DNA from: a virus
Lineage: Duplodnaviria > Heunggongvirae > Uroviricota > Caudoviricetes
DNA: 43,006 bases
Virus record (IMG/VR): IMGVR_UViG_3300031555_002904
Strand: one strand, 5' to 3'
Part shown: piece after piece, positions 12,428 to 27,789 of the stretch
How positions within the stretch are numbered: position 1 is the stretch's first letter
Layout of the letters: every line of letters begins with the position of its first letter
Translations under genes and position numbers: made by a program
Notes under the pieces: generated by a model
The model's database searches: none
What the model was told of the DNA's origin: nothing
Seen by the model: the letters and a program-made list of their open reading frames with translations, nothing else

Positions 12428-12774
12428 CCCGAAATAGGCCCCGGGGTTTTATTCACATCTGGGGAAAAACACAAAGTCTATAGTCTGCGTCGCGGCGAGC
12501 GCACACAGCAAAGGTATTGCCAGCCCCGGCAAAGAGGCGCAAAGACACACACAACACATCCTCATACATACACAATAATGTATGTATAATAAACAATACA
12601 CACACAATAATACATACACAATACACACGCTGGGCCGTGCACGTGCGGCGCGGCCCTAGCTGCCATGCAATAATACCCTACACAAAAAAAGTTCTACACA
12701 TTTGTGCATCTTACCTATTGACAAACATCCTGTAATGTGGTATACTGTAGATACAACAAAGGAACAGTGAGGTA

Positions 12775-13056
12775 ATGACAATGAGTGAGAAGGTACTGTG
12801 TGTGCTGTGTGCTATACTACTGGTAGTGACCTTCAATGCACTAGGTCAAGCACAGCTTAATGATAGGTACACAAGAGAAGCTGTGGTAGTAGAGGTAGAG
12901 GGTAACACCATCAGCGCAGAGGACACCACAGGCAATGTGTGGTGCTATGATGTAGAGGGTGACACTGTACCATGTGTAGGCACAAGGGTAGTGCTAACCA
13001 TGCTAGCCATGGGCAGTGATACTATCTATGATGACAGAGTAGTAGATGTAGAGTAA
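12775..13056 (+). CDS. Hypothetical protein with N-terminal hydrophobic segment, 93 aa
   Basis: First gene after promoter 12718; GAGG RBS; hairpin after stop. Confidence 0.7.
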   Translation: MTMSEKVLCVLCAILLVVTFNALGQAQLNDRYTREAVVVEVEGNTISAEDTTGNVWCYDVEGDTVPCVGTRVVLTMLAMGSDTIYDDRVVDVE

Positions 13057-13261
13057 GGTACACAGCCTTACTCTATTATACTATGTAGTAGTAGCCACCG
13101 AGCACAGGCGTCAGGTCCCCTAGTGGGGCATACTGTAGGGGGTGCTAAAAAAAAGTTGCGTAAATAAGCAAAAAAACTCTTGACAAAAAGCTCCCGTAAT
13201 GCTATAATAAAGACACAAAGAGAGAGGGACACAACCTCACAGAGTAAAGGAGATAACAACA

Positions 13262-13417
13262 ATGACCATTTCTAACAACATCGCTATGTGGATTGCTAAC
13301 AGCAACCTTGACAATACTACTACTTGTCCTGAGTGGCTGGGTATCACTCTTGTGGCTCTAGTCGTAGCCTTTGGCGTAGCTGCTATTGCCACTATCATCG
13401 CTGTCAACAAGAACTAA
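13262..13417 (+). CDS. Small TM protein, 51 aa (not in ORF track)
   Basis: AAGGAG RBS, MTISNNIAMW...AVNKN-TAA. Confidence 0.6.
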   Translation: MTISNNIAMWIANSNLDNTTTCPEWLGITLVALVVAFGVAAIATIIAVNKN

Positions 13418-13434
13418 TAGAGGAGGACAAGACA

Positions 13435-13656
13435 ATGAACAAGAGACCTATCAACAAGATGCTGAGCACAGTAAGAGAGCTAAAGCCTGAGGTGCAGGCA
13501 AGCCATCAGTACAAGTACATCATCATGGTACTGAACAAGGACAACGAGGACATCACCTACGCAGAGAAGCTGATGGTGAGAGACAACCTGCGTGTGCTGT
13601 GTAAGGTAGCAGGTGTGTCCTATGAGAGACTGCTGATGAGGGTGTGCCAAGAGTAA
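13435..13656 (+). CDS. Hypothetical protein, 73 aa
   Basis: AGGAGG RBS; stop inside GGGTGTGCC/GGCACACCC terminator. Confidence 0.7.
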   Translation: MNKRPINKMLSTVRELKPEVQASHQYKYIIMVLNKDNEDITYAEKLMVRDNLRVLCKVAGVSYERLLMRVCQE

Positions 13657-13868
13657 GGCACACCCTTTAATTGTGCAATGTGACGAATCCCGCCATAGGC
13701 GCGCCAACGGTCCTGGCGCGCCCTAATTGCCAGTATAACACATCCCAGCCATTTTGTCAAGAGGAAAATTAGAAAAAAAATAAATAATTATTTTTCCCAA
13801 AAGGTATTGACAAATCGGTCTCCGTGTGGTATACTAAGTACAACAAAAGAACAAAGGAGCTAAACACC

Positions 13869-14192
13869 ATGAAGAAGATTACCAAGACTGCCGAAGAGAC
13901 CAAGAGAGACGAACTCGTCATCGCTACTCGCAATGCAAAGGACAAGATTGAGTACTGTGTGAGAGTCATCAACCGCAGACAGAAGGCAATGGCTATGTTG
14001 CCCCAAGAGTCCGCAGAATACAAGATGTTTGCGGGCGATGTAACCGAGGATAAATGGGTACTGGTTTCCGCTCTGCGTAGCTACGACAGAGCAAGGGAAG
14101 AACTGGCTGAGCACTGCCGAGCCTACCACCTCGCAGGAAATACTTTCCTTTCTGGCTATGAACTTTTGGAAATTCTCGCAGAAAAGGCTTGA
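13869..14192 (+). CDS. Hypothetical protein, 107 aa
   Basis: Promoter 13807, AAGGAG RBS; TGA overlaps next -35. Confidence 0.75.
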   Translation: MKKITKTAEETKRDELVIATRNAKDKIEYCVRVINRRQKAMAMLPQESAEYKMFAGDVTEDKWVLVSALRSYDRAREELAEHCRAYHLAGNTFLSGYELLEILAEKA

Positions 14193-14243
14193 CAAAAGCC
14201 TTTCTCTGTGATACAATGTAGGTACAAAAGGAAAGGAACTGAA

Positions 14244-14684
14244 ATGAAAATGATTTACTGTGGCTATCAGGGTAGTGGAAAATCTACCTACTGTAGAAAT
14301 AACCCCAATACTACTGTTGACCTCGACAGCTCCGCATTTGTCAAGGTCGCAGGATGGGAAGAAAACTATGTGCGGACGGCGGTTGCCCTCGCTACTGACA
14401 AGAATGTATTCATCTCCGCTCATCGTGTGGTGATTGAATACTGCATGAACAACAACATTCCCTTTGTTATCCTCGCACCCTCGCAGAGCAAAGAGGCTTG
14501 GCGTGCTCGTCTTGAGTTCCGCTACCACAAGAACCCCATCCTCGCAAACTTTAAGGCAATCGCAGACTTCGAACAAAATTTCGACAACGACCTGCAATAC
14601 TATCGCCTTTTGGAAAGCAAGGGCATTTGCGTGCGGTGGATTGAAGCCACAGTTGTGACAAACATTGGCGAAAAAATTTTTTGA
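14244..14684 (+). CDS. P-loop NTPase/kinase-like protein, 146 aa
   Basis: N-terminal Walker A GYQGSGKS followed by VDLDS; small-molecule kinase architecture. Confidence 0.75.
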   Translation: MKMIYCGYQGSGKSTYCRNNPNTTVDLDSSAFVKVAGWEENYVRTAVALATDKNVFISAHRVVIEYCMNNNIPFVILAPSQSKEAWRARLEFRYHKNPILANFKAIADFEQNFDNDLQYYRLLESKGICVRWIEATVVTNIGEKIF

Positions 14685-14751
14685 AAAGGGGTTGACAAAA
14701 CCCCTTTCCCGTGTTATAATTAAGATACAAAAAGAGAGGAGAGTAAATCAA

Positions 14752-15078
14752 ATGTTAAAGAGCATGAGCATCACCGTGAGTTTCACCGACCACTGCTACA
14801 CCGAACGCAGAGAAAGACTTGTAAAAATGGATAGAGAGTTAGGCTTCGGCGAAATCATTTGCACCACAATTTACAGAGGAAAGAGAAACTGCTTGACTTC
14901 CACTGGTATCTTAATGGTAATGGATGCCAAGAGCAACATTCTTGTCACCGCCTACCCTGCAAGATGGAAGATTGCCTGCAAGATGTTCTACGAAACTACT
15001 GGTGGTTATCCTCCTGCTGGTTACTCTGAAATCATCAGACGGGCAAAAGCATGGGACTGTGAAAATAATTGGATTTAG
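14752..15078 (+). CDS. Hypothetical protein, 108 aa (ends TAG; TAA at 15094-15096 if read through)
   Basis: Promoter 14692, GAGGAG RBS. Confidence 0.7.
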   Translation: MLKSMSITVSFTDHCYTERRERLVKMDRELGFGEIICTTIYRGKRNCLTSTGILMVMDAKSNILVTAYPARWKIACKMFYETTGGYPPAGYSEIIRRAKAWDCENNWI

Positions 15079-15140
15079 GGGTTGACAAATCCCTAAATCT
15101 ATGGTATAATTTAATTACAAAAAGAAAAGAGGTAAACGAA

Positions 15141-15296
15141 ATGAGTAAGAAAAAGAAAAACACAATCGACCGCAGAATGTTCAAGAAAGAGGGAGAAGAA
15201 CTTCAGCAGTATCTCCACTTTCGCAAGCGTGGCTCTGTGGTAGAAAGCAAGAAGAAATACAACAGACAGAAATTCAAAAGGGGTGATAATGGATGA
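15141..15296 (+). CDS. Small very basic protein, 51 aa
   Basis: Promoter 15082, GAGG RBS; MSKKKKNT...SKKKYNRQKFKRGDNG. Confidence 0.7.
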   Translation: MSKKKKNTIDRRMFKKEGEELQQYLHFRKRGSVVESKKKYNRQKFKRGDNG

Positions 15297-15517
15297 TTAT
15301 TAAAGGGGCAGATGGTGAGTACGAAGCCACATGGAAGCTCGGCGAAGACTATGTTCATGTAGTCTATCGAAAGATAATTCATCCCAATTGGCCCATTTTC
15401 CGCACAAAATACTACTATTGCACAGTAATTCACAAAGAAGATTTCAACCAGAAGCGAGTGCGGGATGCTCTCCTTGTTAGAGAACATTACGAAAAAAAAT
15501 GTGCTTGCGGGGGTTGA
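15293..15517 (+). CDS. Hypothetical protein, 74 aa
   Basis: ATGA overlap with previous gene. Confidence 0.65.
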   Translation: MIIKGADGEYEATWKLGEDYVHVVYRKIIHPNWPIFRTKYYYCTVIHKEDFNQKRVRDALLVREHYEKKCACGG

Positions 15518-15562
15518 CAAAATCCCCAAACCATGTTATAATAATGCCAAGAGGTGAGAACA

Positions 15563-15793
15563 ATGAAAACAGCAGCAGAAATAGCACGAGAGTGGCAAGC
15601 ACAATTGCGTGACCCTCGCATTAGATGTCCTAACTGCGGGAGTAGTGCCCAATCCGAACTGGTGTACCAGGACAATACAAGCAACCGCAGAGAGAAAAAA
15701 GACGATTACATTTGCGGGTGCGGGTGTCGGTTCAGGGCACATTTTACACTCATTCAAACCGAGATACTGGAAATCGAAGCGCCTTACTACTAA
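15563..15793 (+). CDS. Zn-ribbon protein, 76 aa
   Basis: CPNC...CGCG; promoter 15514, GAGGTG RBS. Confidence 0.7.
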   Translation: MKTAAEIAREWQAQLRDPRIRCPNCGSSAQSELVYQDNTSNRREKKDDYICGCGCRFRAHFTLIQTEILEIEAPYY

Positions 15794-16088
15794 GGCGCTT
15801 TTTCCATTTTGCTTTTTCGGTCGCGCGCCCACGGCCCAGGCGCGCGTTATTTCCATTATACCACAGCCCCAGCAATTTGTCAATAGGCAATTTGCACAAA
15901 AAATAAATAGTTGTTTTTCCTAAAATTGTGCTTGACTTTCTATTCCGGATGTGATACAATGTTCTTGTGGTTGAGAGAGACCACTAAATCAAAAAAAAGT
16001 TCAAGAAAATGAAAAAAAGTTCTTGACAAACCGGGAAACTGGTGTTATAATTAAGATACAAAAAGGAACTGAAAAGGAGATAATAACA

Positions 16089-16562
16089 ATGACTAAGGGT
16101 AATTTCTTCCGCTACTACAACAAGCTGACTGGCGCTGACCGCACTCTGATTTTCTTCGAGCGCAAGGGTATCATCTACATCTACAACTGCAAGCACATCG
16201 CTCCTCGTTGGGCACACGAAGAATTTGAGTCCTCCAAGAACGGCGGACAGCAGAAATTCAAGATGTACATCAGCGTATCCGAAAAGGATAAGCTGATTGC
16301 CAAGGGTGCAACCCCCATCATGACCAAGGCTGAATTTGAAGCCATTCCTTACAAGAACAAGGGTCACAAGTGCGAAGCCTATCTGCACAAGGCTTGCGGT
16401 CTGGGTGAGTACACTCCCGACCATGTCCGCTTTGACTACTGCGGTGATGTGGAAATCGGTGGCGTTCAGTATCAGGTCAAGTACGAAAACGCAAGCCTGA
16501 CCAATGTGGATGTGCTCCACAAGGCACAGAAGCGGGCAAGAGAAATGAAAAAGGGAAAGTAA
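16089..16562 (+). CDS. Hypothetical protein, possible PD-(D/E)xK nuclease fold, 157 aa
   Basis: GDVEIGGVQYQVK resembles a D..(Q/E)xK motif; AAGGAG RBS. Confidence 0.55.
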   Translation: MTKGNFFRYYNKLTGADRTLIFFERKGIIYIYNCKHIAPRWAHEEFESSKNGGQQKFKMYISVSEKDKLIAKGATPIMTKAEFEAIPYKNKGHKCEAYLHKACGLGEYTPDHVRFDYCGDVEIGGVQYQVKYENASLTNVDVLHKAQKRAREMKKGK

Positions 16563-16652
16563 AAAAAACTTTCCCTTTTTTCAAAAAAGGTATTGACAAA
16601 TCACGGTTTTGGGTGTATAATTAAGGTACAAAAAGGAAAGGAACTGATACAA

Positions 16653-17105
16653 ATGGCAAAGCAGATGAACATCACAATTAACTTCGACATGGACGGCACA
16701 ATCGCTGACCTCTATGGTGTAGAGAACTGGCTCGAATACCTCATCGCAGGTGACACTTTCCCCTACGCAAACGCAAGACCTCTGCTCCACCTCTCCGCAC
16801 TGGCTCGCAAGCTGAACGCACTTCAGCGGAACGGCTACAACCTCGCAGTTATCTCTTGGTTGAGCAAAAGTGGAACTGCTGAATACAACGAAGCAGTTAC
16901 CGAAGTCAAGCTGAACTGGCTGAGAAAGCACCTGCCGAGCGTGAACTGGAACGAAATCCACATCGTTCCCTATGGCACTCCGAAGCAGAACTTCTGCAAC
17001 AATCCTCTCGACATTCTGTTCGACGATGAAGAACGCAACAGAACGAACTGGACAGGCAGAGCCTACGATGTGCAGAACATCTTGGAAATTCTCAGAGAAA
17101 TCTGA
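16653..17105 (+). CDS. HAD-superfamily phosphatase (5'(3')-deoxyribonucleotidase-like), 150 aa
   Basis: Motif I FDMDGTIADL, motif IV ILFDD. Confidence 0.85.
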   Translation: MAKQMNITINFDMDGTIADLYGVENWLEYLIAGDTFPYANARPLLHLSALARKLNALQRNGYNLAVISWLSKSGTAEYNEAVTEVKLNWLRKHLPSVNWNEIHIVPYGTPKQNFCNNPLDILFDDEERNRTNWTGRAYDVQNILEILREI

Positions 17106-17175
17106 GAATTTCCTCTTGACAAACGGCAATTGATGTGCTATAATTAAGACACAAAGAAGAAAGGAACTGATAAAA

Positions 17176-17325
17176 ATGTTAGAAATGATTTGCGCAATCC
17201 CCGAAGAAATCGGCTGGGCATTGGTTGGCTTTGTCGGAGCATTCGCCTTGATGATGGCTGTCAAGGTCGGCAAGATAATCGTTGAAGCAATCAAAGAAAG
17301 ATTGGAGGATGATGAAGAATGCTGA
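17176..17325 (+). CDS. Small TM protein, 49 aa (not in ORF track)
   Basis: GAAAGGAACTGATA leader; MLEMICAIPEEIGWALVGFVGAFALMM... Confidence 0.6.
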   Translation: MLEMICAIPEEIGWALVGFVGAFALMMAVKVGKIIVEAIKERLEDDEEC

Positions 17326-17588
17326 AAACTGGAATTGTAGTTTGCCCCACTTGCGGGGGCGAGGTTGTTGAGTTCGATACTCTCGACATTGAGGTGGACA
17401 ACACCACTGTGACCCTCTTTAAGGTTGGCGAGTGCGACCACTGCGGAAACCATTACCAGTGGCACGAGGAATACACCCTTGCAGGATACCGCGACCTGGA
17501 ACAGACCCAGGGCGAAAGCGAGGACGAGCCCGATGCGGACGAATGCGGGTTCGACCCCTTCGCAGGTTGTTATACTTACGACTGCTGA
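17319..17588 (+). CDS. Zn-ribbon acidic protein, 89 aa
   Basis: CPTC...CDHC; GGAGG RBS. Confidence 0.7.
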   Translation: MLKTGIVVCPTCGGEVVEFDTLDIEVDNTTVTLFKVGECDHCGNHYQWHEEYTLAGYRDLEQTQGESEDEPDADECGFDPFAGCYTYDC

Positions 17589-17758
17589 AAAAGCAGTCGT
17601 TTGTTTTTGGCGGCGCGCTCACGGTCCAGGCGCGCCGATTTTCGTCAGAATAACCAGTTTCAACAATTTTCCGTGCAATTTATTTGTGCAAAATAACAGT
17701 TGACAAATCCCAAAAGGTGTGATACAATAGTATCAACAAAGGAAAGGAACTGATACAC

Positions 17759-18163
17759 ATGAAACTGGTTTACGATTGCGGACAATCCATCTCTCTGTCT
17801 CCTCGCAGAGATTTTGAAGAAACTTCTATTTGGTGGCACCTGCACCTGCTCGATGCGGAAGAATCCCTCGACCGCACCAACCGCACTTACTACGACACTT
17901 TCGAGAGCTTTTTTGAAGCGGTCTGTGAAAACAAGGTAAGAAATGCAGAAGCCTACATCGGTCTGTTCAAGACCCCCAAGGTATTGGTGAAATGTGGCAT
18001 GAACCACTATACTGTCACCAAGAGGAACTTCAAAGAGGTGTGCGTGTGGAACTACACCAAAGAAGTCTCCCACCTGCCCATGTCCACCCTCATGGACAAA
18101 CTTCCTGCGGACGAGTTCGCAGAATACCTGCGTGAAAGGGGAGTAGCCTTACAGCAAGGCTAA
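17759..18163 (+). CDS. Hypothetical protein, 134 aa
   Basis: Promoter 17700 and standard leader. Confidence 0.75.
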   Translation: MKLVYDCGQSISLSPRRDFEETSIWWHLHLLDAEESLDRTNRTYYDTFESFFEAVCENKVRNAEAYIGLFKTPKVLVKCGMNHYTVTKRNFKEVCVWNYTKEVSHLPMSTLMDKLPADEFAEYLRERGVALQQG

Positions 18164-18247
18164 TCCCCGGAAAAATTAAAAAAAGGTATTGACAAATCAA
18201 ACAATCTGTGCTATAATAAATTTATCAAGTGAAAGGAAATGATACCA

Positions 18248-18907
18248 ATGTTTACTGAAAAAACTTTTGCAATTATCGACACTGAAACCCTCGGCGGTGC
18301 TTCTCAGGCGCACTGCCCTACCTACCACTGCGCTGGCATTGCTTTCACCAAGAGAGCAGAAATCAGCAGAATCAACATCGTGGTCATCGGCAACCTACTT
18401 TTGGATTCTGCGTTCTATGGCAAATTCAAAAAAGACTACTACCGCGACCTGCTCCGCGACCCTGCAACTATTATCTGCTACAACGAAGCAGAGGCAAGCG
18501 AAATCTTCTCTGCGTGGCTTGCTGAAAACAATGTGTCCTGCGCCTGCGCCCACAACAGCGGTTTTGACTTCAACAAGACTTTCGTTGCTGAGTGTATCGA
18601 GGGAATGGAATTCATCGACACTTGGCAGGCATTTTTCGAGACCATCGGCAAGTACACCAAGTACAACAAATTCTGCTGTGAAAATGGCTTTGTAACCAAG
18701 AGCGGAAACGTTCAGATGACCGCAGAAATCTGCTACCGCTTCATCAGCGGAGACATTGAGTTCGTCGAGGAACACACCGCCCTCGCAGATTGTGAAATCG
18801 AAATGCAGATTCTGCGTGCGGTTTGGGCAACTCACCGCAAGTTTACTCGCAATGTTCACAAGGGCGATTCCGCCTATCGCTTCCAAGTGGTCAAGGGCAG
18901 ATTCTAA
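18248..18907 (+). CDS. DEDDh 3'-5' exonuclease (DnaQ-like)
   Basis: ExoI IIDTET, ExoII AHNSGFD, ExoIII EEHTALADCEIE. Confidence 0.88.
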   Translation: MFTEKTFAIIDTETLGGASQAHCPTYHCAGIAFTKRAEISRINIVVIGNLLLDSAFYGKFKKDYYRDLLRDPATIICYNEAEASEIFSAWLAENNVSCACAHNSGFDFNKTFVAECIEGMEFIDTWQAFFETIGKYTKYNKFCCENGFVTKSGNVQMTAEICYRFISGDIEFVEEHTALADCEIEMQILRAVWATHRKFTRNVHKGDSAYRFQVVKGRF

Positions 18908-18996
18908 AATCTGCCCTCCCGGGCGAAAAAAGGTATTGACAAATTCAAAATCATGTGCTATAATTAACTCAGAAAACAAGAAAGGAACTGACAGTA

Positions 18997-19404
18997 ATGA
19001 CTTGGGCAGAACATTTGGAAGCTATGCGAAATACTCCCGCATTTATTAACGAAGCAAACCCCCTGCGCTTCTCTGCACCCGAAAGCGAAGGTTTGTACCT
19101 TGTAGGTAGCACCAATTTCAATCCCTTTACCCATGAAGAAATCTATTTGGTAAAGGTTGGTAAAAGCTACAACCTGCAACGCAGAATGAAAGATTATCTC
19201 ACCACCAACCCTGGAATGTTCCACATTGATTTTTGTACCATTCCCCGCCCCATGGTCGGCAAGTCCGAATGGCAGTGCCACGCAATTTTGTATGCAGTTT
19301 GCAAAGGCAAGGTAGAAAAAAGCGAAGAGTGGGTGAGAGTAAGCCGAGAGGTTTATCTCGAAATCTGCGAAAAGGGTTTCAAATATTTTTCTGAAAGAAT
19401 GTAA
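18997..19404 (+). CDS. GIY-YIG-like (T5orf172-type) protein, 135 aa
   Basis: GLYLVG...VKVGKSYNLQRRMKDY...EEW. Confidence 0.7.
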   Translation: MTWAEHLEAMRNTPAFINEANPLRFSAPESEGLYLVGSTNFNPFTHEEIYLVKVGKSYNLQRRMKDYLTTNPGMFHIDFCTIPRPMVGKSEWQCHAILYAVCKGKVEKSEEWVRVSREVYLEICEKGFKYFSERM

Positions 19405-19492
19405 AAAACCCTTGACAAACCCCCAAGAGTGTGCTATAATAAATACAACAAAGGGAAAGGAAAATCCCAAACACCAGAAAGGAAATGATACC

Positions 19493-19735
19493 ATGATGAA
19501 CTACAAGTATGTTGTTGAGAGCTTCTACGATGATGCCAAGGTCACTGTCGAAACCAACGACCCCGAGGTCGCAGTTCTGGAAATGATGCAGAGGGACATG
19601 GATGGTGTCCACGCCCACTGCGTTGATGGTCTGACTGGCGAAGTCCTCGCCCTCGTCAACCACCCCGACCAGTTCGTCCAGTCTGAGTTCGCTCTGATGA
19701 CCCTGGGTGTGCTGATGGCACACCTGGCAAAGTAA
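19493..19735 (+). CDS. Hypothetical protein, 80 aa
   Basis: Promoter 19412, standard leader, terminator 19745-19771. Confidence 0.7.
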   Translation: MMNYKYVVESFYDDAKVTVETNDPEVAVLEMMQRDMDGVHAHCVDGLTGEVLALVNHPDQFVQSEFALMTLGVLMAHLAK

Positions 19736-20044
19736 CAAACCAAGAGCCATCCCGCAAGGGGTGGCTTTTTCATTTCAATTTTTGGGCGCGGCGCCCTCGG
19801 ATGTGGGCGCCGGAATTTCCATTATACCACACCGCCAGCAATTTGTCAAGAGAAAAGTTACACAAAGTTTGATTGATTTGAATTCCTGTTTTTGTGCATT
19901 ATTACCTATTGACTTTTGGTGCGGTCTGTGGTATACTATCATTGTCAAGGGGAGATAGGTGAGCCTGCCCCCAAGGGCGAAAAAAAAATCTCAAAAAAAA
20001 TTGAGAAAACCCCTTGACAAACCCCTTAAAGTGTGATACAATAA

Positions 20045-20280
20045 GGGTACAAAAGGCGAGGGCAAGGCGACCACGAAAAGGTGGGTGCCCACGAGAGCGA
20101 GTAAGACCTTGTTACCAATGACCCGACCGCAAGGTGTTCCTGTTTGCGGAATACAAATGTGAACCAGACCACGCAGGCTGAAAAAATGTCGTGGATACGC
20201 AGGATACAAAAGCCAATTTCTTTGGTGGTGAAAGCGGACTCACCCTAACTGTGGCTTAAAGGCTCAGCCAAGCCAAAGAA
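20045..20280 (+). ncRNA. Putative structured small RNA (unassigned)
   Basis: Promoter 20014, no RBS-led ORF, several stems (GGGCA/TGCCC, CCAC/GTGG, ACC-GCAA-GGT, CCACG/CGTGG, TTTCTTTGG/CCAAAGAAA). Confidence 0.5.
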
Positions 20281-20408
20281 AAAAAAATTAAAAAAAACTC
20301 TTGACAAACAAATCAAGATGTGCTATAATAAGTATGTAAAGAGGAAAACCTCTTACAAATAAATTCATCGACAGGTTCAAGTCGTTAAAACCGAAAGGAA
20401 TTGATACT

Positions 20409-20768
20409 ATGGCTAACAACAAGAAGATGACCAAGGCTGACTACTTCAAGCAGATTTCTGCCAACTACCCTCTGACTGCCGATGAGCAGGCTTTCATCGC
20501 CCACGAACTGGAACTGCTCGCCAAGAAGAACTCTGCGGAAAAGAAGCCGACCGCACAGCAGGTGGCAAACGCAGGTGTCGCTGATGCCATCGTCAATGCG
20601 ATGGAAGATGGTGTCCTCTACACCATCACCGACCTCATCAAGACTGTTCCTGCGTGTGCGGAACTGACCAACCAGCGTGTTTCTGCCATCGTGCGTGGTA
20701 TGATTGGCACCAAGGTTGAGCGTGTCGAGGAAAAGCGTAAGGCATACTTCCGCAAGATTGCGGAGTAA
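20409..20768 (+). CDS. Family A paralog 1 (putative winged-helix DNA-binding protein), 119 aa
   Basis: Shares HELELLAKKNSAEKKPTAQQ and VPACAELTNQRVSAIVRG with 23438 and 24973. Confidence 0.8.
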   Translation: MANNKKMTKADYFKQISANYPLTADEQAFIAHELELLAKKNSAEKKPTAQQVANAGVADAIVNAMEDGVLYTITDLIKTVPACAELTNQRVSAIVRGMIGTKVERVEEKRKAYFRKIAE

Positions 20769-20893
20769 GCCTACTCCCCCAAGGGCAGGGGGTAACCCCT
20801 GCCCACCTTGACCCCGGCGAAAAAATTTTCAAAAAGCACTTGACAAATCCCTCTGTCTGTGCTATACTATAATCACAGAAAGGAAGTGAGTCA

Positions 20894-21253
20894 ATGCTTG
20901 ATGAAAAGTTAATTGCCAAGCACATGGCAAGCCTCGGCATCAGCCGAGAGGAAGCAATCCAGTTGATTGAGGATGACAAAGCAATCGACAGGGGCGCAAA
21001 GATGTTTGAGCTTGACCCCGAACTTGAGAAAGGCGCAAAAAAGGCAAGACAAGCCGAGCGCAAGGTCAGCACCACCCCAGTGAAGCGAGAGAAGAAAGCC
21101 AAGCCTGAAAAGGCTGAAATCTGCTCCGCAATGATGGATGGTCTGCGAGTTTTGGGTGTGGAAGATTTCACCATCAACAACCCCGAACGCGAGTTCTTGT
21201 TCATCCACAATGGAACGAAGTACAAGGTCACACTTGCCTGCCCTCGTTCCTAA
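20894..21253 (+). CDS. Family B paralog 1, 119 aa
   Basis: Shares EEA.Q.I.DDKAIDRG with 23923. Confidence 0.8.
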   Translation: MLDEKLIAKHMASLGISREEAIQLIEDDKAIDRGAKMFELDPELEKGAKKARQAERKVSTTPVKREKKAKPEKAEICSAMMDGLRVLGVEDFTINNPEREFLFIHNGTKYKVTLACPRS

Positions 21254-21577
21254 GGCTCCTAAGGGGTCGAGCCAATCGGCCCCATTCCATTGGCGGTGTG
21301 CTGTCATCGTCTGGAGGTAAACCACTAGGGGGAAGGCGCCCAACCCTGGGGTATGGTACTAAAACAAAACAGCCGAGAAAAGACCCAGGGGGGCGCCCTT
21401 GGGTCTTCGTCATTTTGCACAAAAATTCGGCCGCGCGCTGACGTACGCCAGCGCCGGTTTTTCGGCGAAATAACCAGTTTCAACAATTTTTGGGGCGAAA
21501 TCTTTGTGCAAATTGACTATTGACATTTCCCATTATCGGGTGTATAATAAGGGTACAAAGTCAAGGAGGTAACAACA

Positions 21578-21760
21578 ATGGGTATGACTTACAAGCAGTT
21601 CATGGACTACGCAATGCAGAACTACTGCAACGGCGGTGATTGTGTGGTCGAGTGTTGGGATGAACTCTCTTTCCGCTACTACTGCGAAGAGTTCGGTCCG
21701 ATGACCAAGGAAAAGGCTGACAGTCTCTTCCGCACTTACCGCGGTTGTGGGGGGTACTAA
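21578..21760 (+). CDS. Hypothetical protein, 60 aa
   Basis: Promoter 21520, AGGAGG RBS. Confidence 0.7.
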   Translation: MGMTYKQFMDYAMQNYCNGGDCVVECWDELSFRYYCEEFGPMTKEKADSLFRTYRGCGGY

Positions 21761-21855
21761 TTCCCCACAAAAGAAAAAAAGTTTCAAAAAACCTATTGAC
21801 AAACATCCAAAAGTGTGCTATAATAATTACAGAAAACAAGAAAGGAACTGATACT

Positions 21856-22101
21856 ATGAAAATGTTCAATGAAATGTCCCTCAAGTCCATCCGCAACAAG
21901 CTCAGCAAGGTCGGTGTCACTATGACCGACGAGCAGTTCAACTCCCTCACCTACTCCGAACTCCGCAAGGTGTACAAGAAGTCCAAGAGGGCTTACGCAC
22001 TCTATGAGCAGGTGGATGCCATTATCAACAAGCCAAAGGCTCCCACTCCTGCGGTGCCGATGCCTGCCAAGGACAACGACAAGGATGCCAGGGGGTTCTA
22101 A
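21856..22101 (+). CDS. Hypothetical basic protein, 81 aa
   Basis: Promoter 21796, standard leader. Confidence 0.7.
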   Translation: MKMFNEMSLKSIRNKLSKVGVTMTDEQFNSLTYSELRKVYKKSKRAYALYEQVDAIINKPKAPTPAVPMPAKDNDKDARGF

Positions 22102-22195
22102 CCCCTTTGGCTCCGCCCGGAAAAATAATTTCCAAAAGGGTATTGACAAACAGAGAGATTTGTGCTATAATAACCACAGAAAGGAAGTGAAGTGA

Positions 22196-22675
22196 ATGGA
22201 TACGAAATTGCTGATTGTGTTCATCGCTCTGAACATCGCCAATGTTATCATTCAAACTGTAAAATCTATCGCCACTGTTAAATGCGGAAAGGTGTCTGCC
22301 GCAGTTATCAATGCGGTTGCCTATGGTCTGTACACCATCGTCACTGTTTACTTAATGTGTGAACTTGACCTCTACCTCAAAGCAGGAATTGTGGCTCTGT
22401 GTAATTTGGTGGGTGTCTATGTGGTAAAACTCATTGAAGAAAAGGCACGCAAGGACAAGCTTTGGAAGATTGAAGCAACTGTCTTTGACCCCTACACCAA
22501 AAGCCTGCATTGTGATTTGACCGCAGAAGAAATCCCTTGCAACTACATTCCCAAAATCGGCAAGTGGTCTGTGTTCAACATTTACTGCGACAGCCAAGAG
22601 AAAAGCAAGAAAGTCAAAGCCTTGCTTGAAAAATACGATGCAAAATACTTTGTGAGTGAAAGCAAGACCTTGTAA
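22196..22675 (+). CDS. Membrane protein resembling the UPF0316/DUF5698 family, 159 aa
   Basis: Three hydrophobic segments ending GVYVVKLIEEK, then a soluble C-terminal domain. Confidence 0.55.
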   Translation: MDTKLLIVFIALNIANVIIQTVKSIATVKCGKVSAAVINAVAYGLYTIVTVYLMCELDLYLKAGIVALCNLVGVYVVKLIEEKARKDKLWKIEATVFDPYTKSLHCDLTAEEIPCNYIPKIGKWSVFNIYCDSQEKSKKVKALLEKYDAKYFVSESKTL

Positions 22676-22743
22676 AAAGGTCTTGACAAACTCCACCAAA
22701 TGTGCTATAATTAAGACAATCCAAGAGGAAAGGAACTGATACA

Positions 22744-23022
22744 ATGAAAGCAACTGGAATTATCCGCAGAGTTGATGACCTCGGCAGAGTGGTTATCCCC
22801 AGAGAAATCCGTCGGTCAATGGGCATCCGCGAGGGCGAACCCCTCGAAATCTTCATCGATGGCAGAGATACTGTCTGCTTCCGCAAGTACGAAGCCAATC
22901 TGAATGGCGAAATTGACCATCTGGTGGACACCATCGAAACCTGCGTGGACGACTACGAAAAGATGGCACAAATCAAGAAGCTTCTGGGCGAAGTGCGGAA
23001 GCTGGTGAAAAGCGAGGAGTAA
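22744..23022 (+). CDS. AbrB/SpoVT-family transcriptional regulator, 92 aa
   Basis: MKATGIIRRVDDLGRVVIPREIRRSMGIREGEPLEIF is a near-canonical AbrB/SpoVT N-terminal domain. Confidence 0.92.
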   Translation: MKATGIIRRVDDLGRVVIPREIRRSMGIREGEPLEIFIDGRDTVCFRKYEANLNGEIDHLVDTIETCVDDYEKMAQIKKLLGEVRKLVKSEE

Positions 23023-23437
23023 AACCCTCGCTTTTTGCGCGGCCCGGGCGCGACTGTGCCCGGCCGAATTTACCATTATACCATGCCCCGCACAATTTGT
23101 CAAGAGGAAATGTTGCACAAAATAATCTTTTTAATTTTCCTGTAATTTGTGCAGTTTGCCTATTGCAATTCGCTTTTGGATGTGGTATACTATCTATGTC
23201 AGTAAGGGAGAGACCCAAGCGGACAGACCGAAAAAAAGTTTGAAAAACTTAAAAAAACCTCTTGACAAACCCCCAAAGATGTGATATAATGAATACATCA
23301 AAGGGAGAGAGAAAGCCAAAGGTTCAAAAAAGATTTTCAAAAAAATCAAAAAAACCTCTTGACAAATCGCTCAACCTATGATATAATAAATACACAAAGA
23401 CAAGGACAGTCTTAAAAACCAGAAAGGAATTGATACT

Positions 23438-23806
23438 ATGGCTACTACTCAGAAGATTACCAAGGCTCAGAAGTTTGCAATGCTCAAGGCTATCCCCGCT
23501 GTTGCGGAGAACGCAATGCTCGTGGAGTTCATCGAGCACGAGTTGGAGTTGCTCGCCAAGAAGAACTCCGCTGAGAAGAAACCCACTGCTCAGCAGACCG
23601 CCAATGCTTCCATCGGCGAAGCCATCGTGGCTCATCTCCAGAGCCAGCCCAACCGCCTCTTTACCATCACTGAGGTTATCAAGGAAGTGCCTGCGTGTGC
23701 TGAGTTGACCAATCAGCGAGTGTCCGCAATCGTGCGTGGTCTCATCGGCACCTCTGTGGAGCGTGTGGAAGAGAAGCGAAAGGCTTATTTCAGAGCCATT
23801 CGCTGA
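23438..23806 (+). CDS. Family A paralog 2, 122 aa
   Basis: Same conserved blocks as 20409..20768. Confidence 0.8.
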   Translation: MATTQKITKAQKFAMLKAIPAVAENAMLVEFIEHELELLAKKNSAEKKPTAQQTANASIGEAIVAHLQSQPNRLFTITEVIKEVPACAELTNQRVSAIVRGLIGTSVERVEEKRKAYFRAIR

Positions 23807-23922
23807 GCCACTCCCCAAGGGGGGGCAATAGCCCCCCCAAAATGGGGCACGGAATTTCAAAAAAGGTCTTGACAAACCGCCCAAGATGTGCTATACTGTA
23901 AGTACAGAAAGGGGGTAAACCA

Positions 23923-24294
23923 ATGGCAGAAAGTCAAGTCGAACGCATTATGCGAAATCTGAAATGCTCCAAAGAAGAAGCCGAACAGATTATCGCAGAC
24001 GACAAGGCAATCGACAGAGGTGAGCGAATGGCTTTTGACCTCTCACCTGAAGCCGAAAAGCAAGCCAAAAAATTCGCAAATACTGGCACAAGGCAGACAA
24101 ATGGGCAGAAAACCGAGCGAAAACGCAAGGAAAACCCCACAAAAGCCACGATAATTGCCGAAATTGCTCAGTTTTTGGCTGAAAATGGCTACGAAATGGT
24201 CGAAATCACCAATAAAGAGCGTCAAATCGCCTTAAAAGTTGGTGAAAATGCCTACGAACTGACGCTTGTGCAGAAACGCAAGCCAAAAAGTTGA
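23923..24294 (+). CDS. Family B paralog 2, 123 aa
   Basis: Same conserved block as 20894..21253. Confidence 0.8.
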   Translation: MAESQVERIMRNLKCSKEEAEQIIADDKAIDRGERMAFDLSPEAEKQAKKFANTGTRQTNGQKTERKRKENPTKATIIAEIAQFLAENGYEMVEITNKERQIALKVGENAYELTLVQKRKPKS

Positions 24295-24494
24295 GAAAAT
24301 CGCCCCAAAAGGGCGATTTTTTCGTTATTTTTTCCAAATTAAATTTAAATTTGTGCAATTTGCACAAAAATCGGCCGGCCGCACACAGATGTGCGGCCCG
24401 GTATTCGGCAAAATGCACAAGTTCAACAAGTTTTTTACCCAATTATTTGTACAACATTACCACTTGCATTTTCCTAAAAATCTGCTATAATTAG

Positions 24495-24600
24495 TAGTGT
24501 CAAGGGGATGAAGTAAACCCCCGCAGATGGGTCGGCGCAGAGGGTTGAAAAATGTTGGGCAGAGGGGTTAGATTGTCCCACCAATCAGACCACCGAAACT
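24495..24600 (+). ncRNA. Putative small RNA (unassigned)
   Basis: Promoter at 24464-24491, no plausible ORF, short stems such as GGGG/CCCC. Confidence 0.35.
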
Positions 24601-24659
24601 TTTTCAAAAAACTTTTGAAAAACCACTTGACAAACAGCACAAGATGTGCTATAATGAGT

Positions 24660-24858
24660 ATGTAATCAAGAGGGGAACTCCTTCGAGGCAAGACCGCAAC
24701 AGATGGTGGAAACAGACACAGGCGAATTGAAACTCTACAACTCCTACGCAAGATTCCCCCCTACTAGGGTGAGTGGTGAGCAACGAAAGGGTGCGAGTAG
24801 ACTCAAGGCAGGGGGCAGAAACAAGTCCAGTGAGCGCAAGGATGCTGTGGGAATAAAA
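24660..24858 (+). ncRNA. Putative structured small RNA (unassigned)
   Basis: Promoter 24627, no RBS-led ORF, stems GGGGAA/TTCCCC, CCT-TCG-AGG, CTAC/GTAG, 3' CAG..GCAA..CTG. Confidence 0.5.
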
Positions 24859-24972
24859 AAAATAGTCGCGAATATTTTTTGAAAACCTCTTGACAAACTC
24901 AAAACCATGTGCTATAATAAGTATGTAATCAAGGGAAGGAAAACCCTAAAAAACCAGAAAGGAACTGATACT

Positions 24973-25341
24973 ATGGCAAACACTAAGAAGCTGACTAAGA
25001 AGGACCATTTCAACACCCTGCTGACCCTGGCTGAGGTCAAGTCCAACCTTGCGCTGGTCGAGTTCATCGAGCATGAGCTGGAACTCCTGGCGAAGAAGAA
25101 CTCTGCTGAGAAGAAGCCTACTGCCCAGCAGGTCGCCAATGCTGGTGTGGCAGAAGCCATTCTGTCCCACATGAGCGCAGACCCCAATCGTCTGTTCTCC
25201 ATCACTGAGCTGATTAAGGAAGTGCCTGCCTGCGCAGAGCTGACTAATCAGCGAGTGAGCGCCATCGTGCGTGGCATGATTGGTGTGTCTGTCGAGCGCA
25301 TCGAGGAGAAGCGCAAGGCGTTCTTCAGGGTCATCCAGTGA
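24973..25341 (+). CDS. Family A paralog 3, 122 aa
   Basis: Same conserved blocks as 20409..20768. Confidence 0.8.
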   Translation: MANTKKLTKKDHFNTLLTLAEVKSNLALVEFIEHELELLAKKNSAEKKPTAQQVANAGVAEAILSHMSADPNRLFSITELIKEVPACAELTNQRVSAIVRGMIGVSVERIEEKRKAFFRVIQ

Positions 25342-25530
25342 TGACCCCTTCCTCCCCCTGCCCCCAATTCGTGGGGCAGGGGCTTTTTTGCGCCGTGCGC
25401 CAACGAGTGTGGCGCCCGGAATTCGTCAAAATAACTAGTCCCCGTAAATTTCCAATCGAATTTTTTGTGCAGTTTGTCATCTTGATTTTTCCCGCAATTG
25501 GTGGTATACTAATCCTAAGAGGTGAGGCAA

Positions 25531-25701
25531 ATGACCGCAGAAGAAATGCGCAAGGCTAAAGCTGAATTGCACAAAGTTATTATTGATACTGTTTTATCTT
25601 TTGGGGGAACTCTCCATGACGATGCAACCATGTATCGATACATTATCGAATTAGCGTCTAATGAGCTTTTAGCTTGTGTTCCTTTTTCCAATGAAAATTA
25701 A
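25531..25701 (+). CDS. Hypothetical protein, 56 aa (not in ORF track)
   Basis: Promoter 25482, GAGGTGAGG RBS, MTAEEMRKAKAELHK... Confidence 0.55.
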   Translation: MTAEEMRKAKAELHKVIIDTVLSFGGTLHDDATMYRYIIELASNELLACVPFSNEN

Positions 25702-25787
25702 AAAAGTGCTTGACAAATTATTAAGTCTGTGCTATAATAAGTATGTAATCAAGGGAGCGAGTGCTCCACAAGAAAGGGTAATTTACT

Positions 25788-26393
25788 ATGAGAACCATTA
25801 AACTGTTTGAGCGTGAAATCAATCTGATTGTCAATGAAGACCTGCGTATGGCGGTCAAGTCTTACATGGAAGAAGCCACCCCTGACTACTTCTGGACAGA
25901 TGGTGCTTCCTCTTCTGGCAAGTATCATCCCCAGTTTTCGCAGGGCATCGGCGGTCTGGTTCGTCACACCAAGGCGGTTGTGATGTTCGCTGAAGAACTG
26001 CTCCGCATGAGTTCCTACGCCTACATGAAAGACGAGTACAAGGACTTCGTAATTGCGGCTTGTATCATCCATGATACCGCAAAGTATGGTGTCGATTGGT
26101 TTGACAAGGCAGAATACAAGAACCACGCAAGAAACGCAAGCAAGGCTTTTGCAGGTTGGTGCGAACAGGTGTTCGATTTTACTCCCCATTTTCTTCTGCT
26201 GAACGCAGTTGAAAGTCACATGGGTCAATGGTCTACTGAACGAGAGGACAGACCTTTCACCAGCGTGGACAGATGTGTTCACATGGCGGACTACATGGCA
26301 AGTCGCTCTTTCATCGACATTCCTTCCATCACAGAGGAATACAACAAAATCGCTTGCCAGTGGGCGGCGGAACACCACGAACTGCCTTTCTAA
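25788..26393 (+). CDS. HD-domain phosphohydrolase, 201 aa
   Basis: SSSGKYH..GGLVRHT..IIHD..SHMGQW..VHMADY. Confidence 0.88.
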   Translation: MRTIKLFEREINLIVNEDLRMAVKSYMEEATPDYFWTDGASSSGKYHPQFSQGIGGLVRHTKAVVMFAEELLRMSSYAYMKDEYKDFVIAACIIHDTAKYGVDWFDKAEYKNHARNASKAFAGWCEQVFDFTPHFLLLNAVESHMGQWSTEREDRPFTSVDRCVHMADYMASRSFIDIPSITEEYNKIACQWAAEHHELPF

Positions 26394-26497
26394 AGGCAGG
26401 GAGTGGAAACCCCGGCGAAAAATATTTTTCAAAAACCTATTGACAAATCTCCAAGAATGTGCTATAATGAGTTCATCAAAGGAAAGGAACTGATACA

Positions 26498-26644
26498 ATG
26501 AACTGTCTGAAATGTGATAACTACTGGCGCACCGACATTGACGAAAGCCGATGCGATAGATGCGGATGCCAAGAAGAATCCAACACCAACCCCAAAGAAA
26601 GCGAGGACAAAGGCAATGAGCAAAAAGCATCTGGGCTGTGCTGA
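26498..26644 (+). CDS. Small Cys-rich protein, 48 aa (not in ORF track)
   Basis: Standard leader; MNCLKC...CDRCGC. Confidence 0.55.
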   Translation: MNCLKCDNYWRTDIDESRCDRCGCQEESNTNPKESEDKGNEQKASGLC

Positions 26645-26753
26645 TAGTGGCTGTGGCTACTACTGGCAGGACGAGGACGAAGATTACCCCCGCTGTCATT
26701 TCGATGGCTTCGGCAAAGCACCCTGTGAGGAGGATGACTGGGATGAAGAATAA
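26616..26753 (+). CDS. Small Cys/acid-rich protein, 45 aa
   Basis: MSKKHLGCADSGCGYYW...; overlapping chain of short ORFs. Confidence 0.45.
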   Translation: MSKKHLGCADSGCGYYWQDEDEDYPRCHFDGFGKAPCEEDDWDEE

Positions 26754-26940
26754 GAAAACCCGATTCATTAACCCCAAGCCCACCGCAGAAAATAGATGCA
26801 TGCGGTGTACCCATGTGGGGCAGGAAACCACAGACGATGTGGCTTGCTGTAACTGTTGCGAGGATGGCGAGTTTTTCGATGACATTGCGGAAGTCGAAGA
26901 CCGCTATACGCTGGATGACCTCGGTCCGAATTGGTGGTGA
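26743..26940 (+). CDS. Small Cys-rich protein, 65 aa
   Basis: GAGGAGG RBS; CMRC..CCNC. Confidence 0.55.
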   Translation: MKNKKTRFINPKPTAENRCMRCTHVGQETTDDVACCNCCEDGEFFDDIAEVEDRYTLDDLGPNWW

Positions 26941-27321
26941 GACCCCCGCAGGGGTCTCATTTTTTTTTCATTTTACCACTTGACAAGTGCGGCCCGGTAT
27001 GGTATAATAATGGTGGGGTTCAACGGGCCGCGGACGGAGGCCAAGGCCCGATTTTCCGACCGGTACACCCCATATGCAAATTTTTTGCTACTTCTAGCGA
27101 CTTTTCATATGCACTTAATTTTCCCGTAAAGTGAGCCCCGGTCGGGAGCCGACCGGTCCTACAAAAACCGCCCGCATATACGCGGGCCGACCGGTAAAAA
27201 TATGTTTTTTTAATATTATAACATATTTTTTTATAAAAATCAAGGCCGAACGGCCATTTGATTTTTATAAAATTTTTTTGTATAATAATAATACAATAAG
27301 AAAAGAAAGAGGTATATACCA

Positions 27322-27789
27322 ATGGTTATTGATAAGAATTATTTCCTGACCCGTCTGCAGAATGGTGAGGATATGACTGCTATCGGCAACGAGATTGCCG
27401 CAATGATGAATGCCGCTATCGACGAGCACAATGCTGCTCTAGAGGCCGAGGCCGCAAAGCAGGCTGAGGTAGAGAAGGAAGCCACCAAGAGAGACCTAAT
27501 TGAAGAGATGGTCGATATCATCAAGGAGCTGGCTATTTTGGAGGGTATGGACCCCGATGAGATGACCCTTTCCGACGAGGAAATGGACCAGCTGGTTGCG
27601 GCTTTCACTGAGATGTTTGCGGCCATGCGCGATTTGAAGAAGATGTTTGCGGACCTGGAGGCTAAGCTGGACTCCGACAAGAGCGGCTCAGTGCGTCTTC
27701 ATCACCCTGGTCCTGCGAGCGGCAGAATTACTCCTGTGGCAAAGAGCGACGAGCAAATTCTGGCCGATTTTATCAAGATGTTTAATTAA
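27322..27789 (+). CDS. Hypothetical acidic coiled-coil protein, 155 aa
   Basis: Promoter 27258, GAGG RBS. Confidence 0.75.
   Translation: MVIDKNYFLTRLQNGEDMTAIGNEIAAMMNAAIDEHNAALEAEAAKQAEVEKEATKRDLIEEMVDIIKELAILEGMDPDEMTLSDEEMDQLVAAFTEMFAAMRDLKKMFADLEAKLDSDKSGSVRLHHPGPASGRITPVAKSDEQILADFIKMFN

Follow-up and report, generated by a model that had tools for sequence, protein, structure and literature searches.

Why does the early region of a phage repeatedly set a consensus promoter to fire backward into a short hairpin, with no gene behind the promoter? This question is raised by a 43,006-nt stretch of viral DNA (Caudoviricetes), hereafter the window, which is the reverse strand of bases 23,117-66,122 within the single 402,311-bp IMG/VR virus record IMGVR_UViG_3300031555_002904. 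An array of small rightward genes spans ~12.7-27 kb of the window. Its blocks are bordered by a composite intergenic module, observed in eight copies at 13.6-25.5 kb and in a degenerate copy at 12.6 kb. The module combines a terminator-like hairpin, a second hairpin rich in G:C pairs (the GC hairpin), in one subtype a leftward promoter, boxes of the sequence TTTGTGCA, and a rightward promoter for the next block (the restart promoter). Our interpretation, held with somewhat less than even confidence, is that this element is an insulating, regulator-controlled boundary and restart node of an early array transcribed with host sigma-A, and that it is also a recombination linker similar to the promoter-early stem-loops (PeSLs).

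Structure of the Boundary Element

The original prediction, made from the letters of the window, placed a terminator followed by a GC hairpin at the block borders. This order was found at all eight copies, where each GC hairpin lies 5-45 nt past a terminator-like hairpin with a T run (Table 1). The hairpins at 13698, 15822 and 17611 share the core ACGG(T/C)CC(A/T)GGCGCG, as had been noted.

Four copies (subtype A) continue with a leftward promoter. Its full-form layout is -35, 17-bp spacer, TG, -10 and GG discriminator. All four had been called perfect; those with the -35 at 15883, 19849 and 23103 are (12/12 with TG), while the one at 13760 scores 11/12. As predicted, these promoters are aimed at the hairpin with no open reading frame (ORF) behind them. 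The predicted leftward RNAs of the copies in the record begin 1-3 nt ahead of a hairpin of -15 to -20 kcal/mol.

Subtype B carries the motif AATAAC(C/T)AG, which begins at 17649, 21469 and 25430, 4-9 nt to the right of the positions first given for it. Its alignment with subtype A runs along the leftward promoter, which makes subtype B a compact derivative in which that promoter has decayed.

The restart promoter usually has a weakened -35. Weak -35 hexamers are all in boundary promoters (TTGACT at 15932 and 19909, TTGCAA at 23163, TTGCAT at 24464, and TTGATT at 25482), in line with the earlier remark that non-consensus -35 boxes gather there. The restart promoter of element 4 leads into an untranslated leader beginning with GTCAAGGGGAG, followed by two consensus promoters and a gene of family A (described below).

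Conservation and Covariation of the GC Hairpin

A covariance model of the hairpin (R1) was built from 32 hairpins. It gave 19 matches in the 402-kb record, all in two arrays (~35 kb) and all on the array strand, and 135 further copies in 51 related loci of IMG/VR, where each locus has its copies on a single strand and the median spacing is ~2 kb. A separate scan of IMG/VR with the leftward-promoter pattern retrieved 88 stretches, ~55 of which contain the whole module: the GC hairpin, the leftward promoter, inverted boxes, a weaker rightward promoter, and a leader starting with GTCA(A/G)..AGGGAG. The original prediction would have failed if relatives had shown neither conservation nor covariation; the module is present in dozens of related contigs, and its hairpin covaries.

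In an ungapped alignment, eight of the nine pairs are changed on both sides. The covariation score is 0.42, compared with 0.17 in shuffles, and was reached by none of 500 shuffles; controls with slid partners gave ~0.1. The 684 stem pairs in 80 distinct hairpins consist of 620 G:C, 50 A:T and 14 non-Watson-Crick pairs, among them five G.T and three C.A. The G.T and C.A counts (5 vs. 3 of 684) show no G.U bias to tell which strand's RNA folds. The pairing is selected, but without the G.U tolerance usual for an RNA of one strand. The near absence of G.U implies either that both strands matter or that maximal stability is required.

The total hairpin length is 27 nt in 68 of 103 distinct copies, with stems of 8-9 bp and loops of 7-11 nt. 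Three stem positions are near-constant. The loop CG is nearly invariant, mostly as ACG at positions 11-13, and the flanks are conserved as GG on the 5' side and AATTT on the 3' side. A palindromic site for a dimeric protein, in place of a hairpin, is disfavored by the concerted C/G swaps; a dimer site would not need them, and a folded strand is favored instead. With stems and loops of these sizes, duplex DNA would be unlikely to extrude a cruciform. A mimic of a CRISPR repeat was also considered and dropped, as the stems vary between copies and no Rfam CRISPR family matches.

The GC hairpin shares the G+C-rich stem of intrinsic terminators. Its loops are those given above, and the mean T count in the 9 nt past the hairpin is 3.3 in copies with a leftward promoter and 4.6 in copies without it. 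Rfam returned nothing at gathering score, and the three chance-level matches at E<1 fell on neither hairpins nor untranslated spacers. The hairpin does not have the form of a lambda-type nut site, considering its 8-9 bp stems, its 7-11 nt loops, and the absence of a boxA-like motif or Rfam match.

Promoters Adjacent to the Hairpin

A leftward promoter accompanies the hairpin in 57 of the 103 distinct copies, 37 of the copies having been retrieved via the promoter pattern itself; the unbiased share is ~20/66, and it is 7/19 in the record. Both hexamers are perfect in 55 copies, the spacer is 17 bp in 56, and the -10 sits 7-8 nt from the stem in 53. A rightward consensus promoter that fires into the hairpin is found in 44 copies, all in relatives, and its -10 ends 2-4 nt before the stem. 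Both promoters stand face to face across the hairpin in 31 copies from relatives. Such a rightward promoter was observed in none of the record's own copies, a few of which keep only the box and the -35 beside the hairpin. Variants exist in which exactly the spacer and the -10 of either promoter are missing. The sense promoter that fires into the hairpin in relatives suggests a face-to-face promoter device.

No adjacent promoter is seen in 33 of the 103 copies, including about two thirds of the record copies. The hairpin is kept equally well without flanking promoters, and its role therefore cannot be only the capping of a leftward RNA.

TTTGTGCA Boxes and Candidate Regulators

The six boxes that had been listed ahead of rightward -35 hexamers are all present (plus strand, 12701, 17683, 19891, 21503, 23146 and 25464), with a promoter-linked gap of 9-10 bp, and the inverted boxes ahead of leftward promoters were located at 15893 and 23114 on the minus strand. 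Further copies are at 24350(+), 24361(-), 21416(-) and 25568(-). The 12 matches in the window compare with 2.9 expected, a count reached by none of 100 shuffles, so that the boxes are more frequent than in shuffled controls, as the prediction required. The two arrays account for 21 of the 26 copies in the record. The five copies outside the arrays and the in-array copy at 25568 are in coding sequence without a promoter; a second regulon, which the five might have marked, is ruled out on this ground.

In the record, a TTTGTGCA box with no more than one mismatch precedes the -35 of 16 promoters (11 rightward and 5 leftward) by 9-10 bp and points the same way as the promoter. The box accompanies 5 of 14 rightward promoters with a non-consensus -35 vs. 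6 of 61 with a consensus -35. In relatives, 14 boxes lie 9-10 bp and 7 lie 19-20 bp from the leftward -35, and the members of inverted box pairs are separated by 22 bp in four cases and by 32-33 bp in four others. These gaps step by one helical turn, as is characteristic of a protein site that has to be turned toward the polymerase. The restriction of the boxes to arrays and promoters and their helical phase fit a regulator bound at a divergent promoter pair, as was first proposed; the leftward transcripts of that proposal remain a prediction.

Two divergent contigs (L137 and L110:460-4200) keep the hairpin and the leftward promoter and have TGTTAA(A/C)-type repeats in place of TTTGTGCA; L137 contains 24 such boxes in 12.9 kb. 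Co-evolution of an operator with its regulator would have this result. A palindrome, TGTTAAAATTTTAACA, stands directly ahead of a hairpin in the L158/L192 group. In the window (12700-27000), the sequence (A/T)TCCCG(A/C)AA recurs directly after the -35 in spacers and also directly upstream of TTTGTGCA boxes.

Candidates for the box-binding protein are the three paralogues of family A and an AbrB/MazE-like protein (22744-23022), all encoded in the array. Two of the three family A genes are followed by a gene of a second family, B. The predicted structure of family A (mean pLDDT 84) consists of helices followed by a C-terminal winged helix, and its nearest structural neighbors are ArsR/SmtB, MarR and TubR-type DNA binders, with weak E-values. 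Searches of Pfam and PHROGs returned no function for families A and B, and a PDB sequence search, made for family A only, returned none either. Each family A gene stands behind three tandem promoters starting at a boundary element, with purine-rich untranslated spacers of 100-250 nt. Speculatively, tandem promoters would suit an autoregulated family A factor. The spacers after the promoters at 20014 and 24627 were rejected as structured RNAs; they fold no better than shuffles (z -1.2 and +2.1).

Genome Context of the Arrays

The 402-kb record consists of two collinear halves, offset by ~203 kb and with ~75% nucleotide identity between them, and the same period is seen in both GC content and cumulative GC skew. 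Relatives that are complete and have terminal repeats measure 194-198 kb, with one array and one hairpin cluster each; the two arrays therefore correspond to one array per ~200 kb genome. The record is probably two related phage genomes assembled together, or a duplicated genome. The second array's copies come from a related genome, as homologues, and do not form a second locus of one phage. In a two-genome record, features paired ~200 kb apart, such as the arrays and the sigma genes, are homologues of each other. The lineage is one of uncultured gut phages of ~200 kb, which use the module 6-9 times per genome. Genes of the related loci are 65-80% identical to those of the window. Their order is shuffled around conserved modules, and alignments break at promoter cassettes.

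Almost all genes of the array have their own perfect TTGACA-17-TATAAT promoter, mostly with the extended -10 TG. The perfect (12/12) promoters number 25 in 15 kb of the window, which contains 68 promoter-like sites in total, vs. 22.5 in shuffles. Record-wide, 65 perfect promoters are observed, almost all in the two arrays (contig 39-52 kb and 243-261 kb). The array products include an NT5C-type 5'-nucleotidase, an HD domain protein, T5orf172, a P-loop kinase-like protein and the AbrB/MazE-like protein. Each genome half contains one gene of the sigma-70 family on the minus strand (contig 190018-190230 and 388237-388449, in frames of 307 and 309 aa). The RNA polymerase beta-subunit domain PF00562 has no match in the record. 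The search for a T7-type RNA polymerase (PF00940) was uninformative, as no control genome matched either. By analogy with SPO1, the arrays may represent an early class read with host sigma-A, after which the phage would switch sigma factors.

Megablast and blastn searches with the array and with one element returned nothing among GenBank phages. The 571-aa ORF at 39950-41665, which we take, without a family check, to be the large terminase, gave one weak tblastn match among GenBank phages (24% identity over 45% of the query).

Several other features of the arrays were observed. Their leaders (window 12700-27000) are purine-rich with a near-uniform ribosome-site block (G)GAAAGGAACTGATAC(A/T)ATG; a 15-mer from this common leader gave single chance matches only in an IMG/VR scan. 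The minima of cumulative GC skew (5-kb bins) fall exactly at both arrays, and the maxima near 130 kb and 318 kb. Within the arrays, GC skew is almost nil and the excess of A over T on the coding strand is strong (AT skew 0.15-0.27). Both arrays close with ~300 nt of homologous non-coding sequence that follows a consensus promoter (window 26980-27320; contig 243100-243510) and contains many GC hairpins (CCGGTCGGGAGCCGACCGG, GCCCGCATATACGCGGGC) and a CATATG...CATATG palindrome. It finishes in a divergent promoter pair around a small GGCC..GGCC hairpin directly before the gene at 27322, and is kept at 72% identity in the related loci L070, L183 and L191. In L110:560-640, a restart promoter leads into a predicted short RNA whose 3' part resembles a tRNA T-arm and acceptor end (GGGGTTCGACTCCCC, then CTCGCTCCA). 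ARAGORN called no tRNA there, and no tRNA or transfer-messenger RNA (tmRNA) in the window or in four related loci.

Table 1. Positions in the window of the boundary elements and of the genes of families A and B. Promoters are written as -35 hexamer, spacer length and -10 hexamer.
Element	Feature	Position	Strand	Details
Array entry	Whole element	12630..12746	+	Degenerate GC hairpin GGGCCG..CGGCCC, CACG in loop
Array entry	TTTGTGCA box and promoter	12701-12708 (box); 12718-12746 (promoter)	+	TTGACA-17-TATACT
1	Terminator-like hairpin	13641..13672	+	Closes preceding block
1	GC hairpin 1	13698..13722	+	GGCGCGCC / AACGGTCCT / GGCGCGCC; about -18 to -20 kcal/mol
1	Leftward promoter	13732..13760	-	TTGACA-17-TATACT, 11/12, with TG
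1	Restart promoter	13807..13835	+	TTGACA-17-TATACT; without box
2	Terminator	15776..15808	+	Closes preceding block
2	GC hairpin 2	15822..15846	+	CGCGCGCC / CACGGCCCA / GGCGCGCG
2	Leftward promoter	15855..15883	-	12/12, TG; predicted start 1-3 nt ahead of hairpin
2	TTTGTGCA box	15893..15900	-	9 bp upstream of leftward -35
2	Restart promoter	15932..15960	+	Weak -35, TTGACT-17-TACAAT; degenerate box AAATTGTGC ahead
3	Terminator	17578..17609	+	
3	GC hairpin 3	17611..17637	+	27 nt
3	Subtype B segment	17649..17671	+	AATAACCAGTTTCAACAATTTT; aligns with subtype A leftward promoter (decayed copy)
3	TTTGTGCA box and restart promoter	17683..17728	+	9-bp gap; TTGACA-17-TACAAT
4	Terminator	19746..19770	+	
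4	GC hairpin 4	19789..19812	+	
4	Leftward promoter	19821..19849	-	12/12, TG; one-mismatch box TTTGTGTA 9 bp upstream of -35
4	TTTGTGCA box and restart promoter	19891..19937	+	10-bp gap; TTGACT-17-TATACT
5	Terminator	21380..21414	+	
5	GC hairpin 5	21433..21455	+	Followed by GGTTTTTCGG; also scored terminator-like
5	Subtype B segment, TTTGTGCA box and restart promoter	21469..21548	+	Box at 21503; promoter 21520-21548
6	Terminator	23011..23036	+	After AbrB/MazE-like gene (22744-23022)
6	GC hairpin 6	23041..23065	+	
6	Leftward consensus promoter	23075..23103	-	12/12, TG
6	Inverted box pair	23114..23153		TGCACAAA (23114) / TTTGTGCA (23146); start-to-start distance 32 bp; each box 9-10 bp from its facing -35
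6	Restart promoter	23163..23191	+	Weak -35, TTGCAA-17-TATACT
7	Terminator	24292..24336	+	
7	Perfect palindrome	24350..24368		TTTGTGCAATTTGCACAAA; two head-to-head boxes directly upstream of hairpin 7
7	GC hairpin 7	24377..24398	+	
7	Degenerate box and weak promoter	24446..24491	+	TTTGTACA; 10-bp gap; TTGCAT-16-TATAAT
8	Terminator	25355..25392	+	
8	GC hairpin 8	25397..25419	+	
8	TTTGTGCA box and restart promoter	25464..25510	+	10-bp gap; TTGATT-17-TATACT
	Family A genes	20409-20768, 23438-23806, 24973-25341		
	Family B genes	20894-21253, 23923-24294		

Proposed Function

As an insulating boundary, the element could work as follows. The intrinsic terminator and the GC hairpin would stop sense transcription of the upstream block. 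The antisense promoter would load RNA polymerase and give a short leftward RNA, capped by the hairpin and hence stable; 5'-terminal hairpins are a known stabilizer against 5'-end-dependent decay in Firmicutes. The antisense polymerase would clear residual read-through by head-on collision, that is, interference, or by occlusion. The next block would then be governed by its own promoter. A box-binding protein, whose identity and direction of action are putative, would tune the antisense promoter and the weakened restart promoter and set the timing or level of the downstream block. The near-identical repeats of the module would double as homology linkers that shuffle gene cassettes, like PeSLs.

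Several points weigh against this interpretation. About 45% of the copies are without the leftward promoter, and their hairpin is equally good. A sense promoter 2-4 nt from the hairpin (44/103) is not predicted by a simple model of a terminator followed by an insulator. The T tail after the hairpin is only moderate, and an intrinsic terminator would usually have a shorter loop. The conserved loop ACG, the conserved flanks and the constant 27-nt length are left unexplained by a boundary. A consistent leftward terminator is absent in this genome, and the leftward RNAs, their length and any interference are predictions. The co-occurrence of box type with family A, family B or AbrB-like genes in related loci was uninformative, as the loci are too short.

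It is possible, though doubtful, that the conserved core is an undescribed device. In this core the 27-nt G:C hairpin goes always with an antisense and, in relatives, often with a sense promoter, at distances fixed to the base pair. The device would be either a collision or occlusion insulator or a generator of hairpin-capped small RNAs with complementary loops, controlled by the phased boxes. We found no account in the literature, Rfam or GenBank phages of a covarying G:C hairpin at the start site of an antisense (in some copies also a sense) consensus promoter, combined with a weakened restart promoter and helically phased boxes. Cassettes of terminator and promoter are already known from phage early arrays; the core of hairpin and backward promoter is without a described counterpart.

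Early arrays are where large phages take over the host, and their wiring is known for few cultured phages. The module suggests that an abundant lineage of uncultured gut phages divides its early array with a reusable part for termination, antisense transcription and protein-controlled restart. A core that does insulate or time the blocks would be a natural insulator or switch of transcription, compact and made from host-polymerase signals alone, with a use in synthetic biology. The model R1 and the box geometry provide a signature to locate early regions and their block structure in related metagenomic phages.

Alternative Interpretations

The element could be a plain cassette of the PeSL type, in which a terminator and consensus promoters are spread by recombination, the leftward promoter is a harmless inverted copy, and the hairpin is a backup terminator. 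PeSLs are stem-loops with a near-perfect sigma-70 promoter, found in hyperplastic regions, and they mediate shuffling (PMC2839356, PMC4122927). The mosaic gene order around conserved promoter cassettes agrees with this. So does subtype B, which shows that the leftward promoter can decay, and copies without that promoter are T-richer past the hairpin, with the one at 21433 scoring terminator-like. However, a neutral by-product would not hold 55 perfect promoters 7-8 nt from a hairpin across lineages that are ~65-80% identical, nor would it maintain a phased box upstream of the leftward -35. A constant length of 27 nt, the loop ACG and scarce G.U pairs are also unusual for terminators, and we consider this explanation unlikely. 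It is quite unlikely that the hairpin RNA itself is the product, a short and stable 5'-triphosphate RNA acting in trans as a decoy for a nuclease or defense sensor or as a sink for RNA polymerase, with complementary loops where promoters stand face to face. The stem sequences vary between copies, which means that no single sequence-specific partner is mimicked, and a third of the copies (33/103, about two thirds of those in the record) have no adjacent promoter to make such an RNA. In this genome, the hairpin read leftward has no U-tract immediately after it, and the sense start in relatives would fall inside the 5' arm and truncate the stem. The coincidence of the leftward start with the hairpin edge is nevertheless what this explanation expects, as are the 31 copies with consensus promoters on both sides, Watson-Crick pairing on both strands as if both were transcribed, the lack of an ORF behind the leftward promoters, and the lack of an Rfam family match.

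Two further explanations place the function in the sense RNA or in the DNA. The hairpin might be a signal in the sense RNA, such as a nut- or put-like antitermination site, a processing site or a site for 3'-end stability, to which the flanking promoters are secondary. All copies are oriented alike with the array, the asymmetric loop ACG and the GG and AATTT flanks are kept even without a leftward promoter, and the hairpin is retained in subtype B. This is very unlikely, considering that the hairpin follows a terminator here, so that little sense RNA should hold it, and that the sense promoter of relatives starts inside the stem. A strand-specific RNA should also tolerate G.U, which is nearly absent, and no boxA-like partner motif was seen. 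The original prediction offered, in addition, a structured DNA site for recombination, nicking or staged injection. Extended to a cruciform or single-strand hairpin for nicking, site-specific recombination, replication priming or an injection stop, this is highly improbable, and T5-type nick sites and an injection stop are given low weight. The strict Watson-Crick symmetry would suit such a site, as would the position of the arrays at the cumulative GC-skew minima of both genome halves, and a strong promoter beside a GC-rich segment recalls R-loop origins, of which T4 oriF/oriG and ColE1 are examples. But stems of 8-9 bp with loops of 7-11 nt extrude poorly, and the copies occur only at operon borders of one early array per genome, tied to promoters with base-pair precision. 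The GC-skew minimum is also the switch of gene orientation and thus unspecific, and no recombinase or nickase is linked to the copies.

Comparison with Known Systems

GC-rich palindromes in intergenic regions at the 3' side of operons are shared with REP elements and bacterial interspersed mosaic elements (BIMEs). The conserved sequence characteristic of REP elements and their RAYT transposase were not seen here. The antisense RNA OOP of phage lambda ends in its own hairpin. The RNA predicted here resembles OOP in being short and set against the main early operon, and differs in that it starts with the hairpin. The early/late switch of phi29 consists of the divergent A2b/A2c and A3 promoters with sites for p4. 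A divergent promoter pair, oriented protein sites at a fixed upstream distance and one promoter weak in its -35 are found in both systems. In contrast to phi29, to which there is no sequence similarity, many copies are present per genome and the regulator is only a candidate.

SPO1 has a host-takeover module, reportedly described by Stewart et al. in 1998. It consists of small early genes with strong early promoters for host sigma-A; phage sigma factors come next (PMC6873191, PMC13401047). SPO1 and the present phages both have their small early genes in dense arrays, equipped with strong promoters of the host type and with terminators, and both encode a sigma factor for later classes; the difference is that no sequence relationship was found. 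To our knowledge, the module of hairpin and antisense promoter is not described for SPO1.

Face-to-face promoter switches are known from coliphage 186 (pR/pL) and P2 (Pe/Pc), where convergent promoters cause transcriptional interference (PMC6593788). The 31 related copies with facing strong promoters are similar; their starts are ~25 nt apart, so occupancy should be mutually exclusive, and operator-like boxes lie beside them. In contrast, 6-9 copies per genome stand at operon borders of a lytic-type early array, instead of a single lysis-lysogeny switch, and a covarying GC hairpin fills the overlap. The copies in the window and the record hold the leftward member only, and their neighbors are varied small early genes, not an immunity repressor or lytic regulator.

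A close likeness is to PeSLs, described in the T4-type phages RB49/phi1, PST and nt-1 (Arbiol et al. 2010, PMC2839356; Comeau et al. 2014, PMC4122927). Both are intergenic repeats that join a stem-loop terminator, an A/T-rich stretch and a near-perfect promoter of the sigma-70 type, both cluster among small genes of unknown function, and gene order is shuffled around both. Here, the 25 perfect promoters have A-rich upstream stretches, the order of genes and modules is shuffled with alignment breaks at the cassettes, as in hyperplastic regions, and a terminator-like T-run hairpin precedes each element, the T tail of the GC hairpin itself being moderate. PeSL phages are T4-type, while the present phages are not placed as such. 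The differences are a second, strictly G:C hairpin of constant length at the start of an antisense promoter (in relatives, also of a sense promoter), phased TTTGTGCA boxes flanking the promoters, and a weakened restart promoter. The original statement that no standard feature class explains the element was thus too strong: the array is built of terminator and consensus-promoter cassettes of the PeSL kind, of which the module is an elaborate version.

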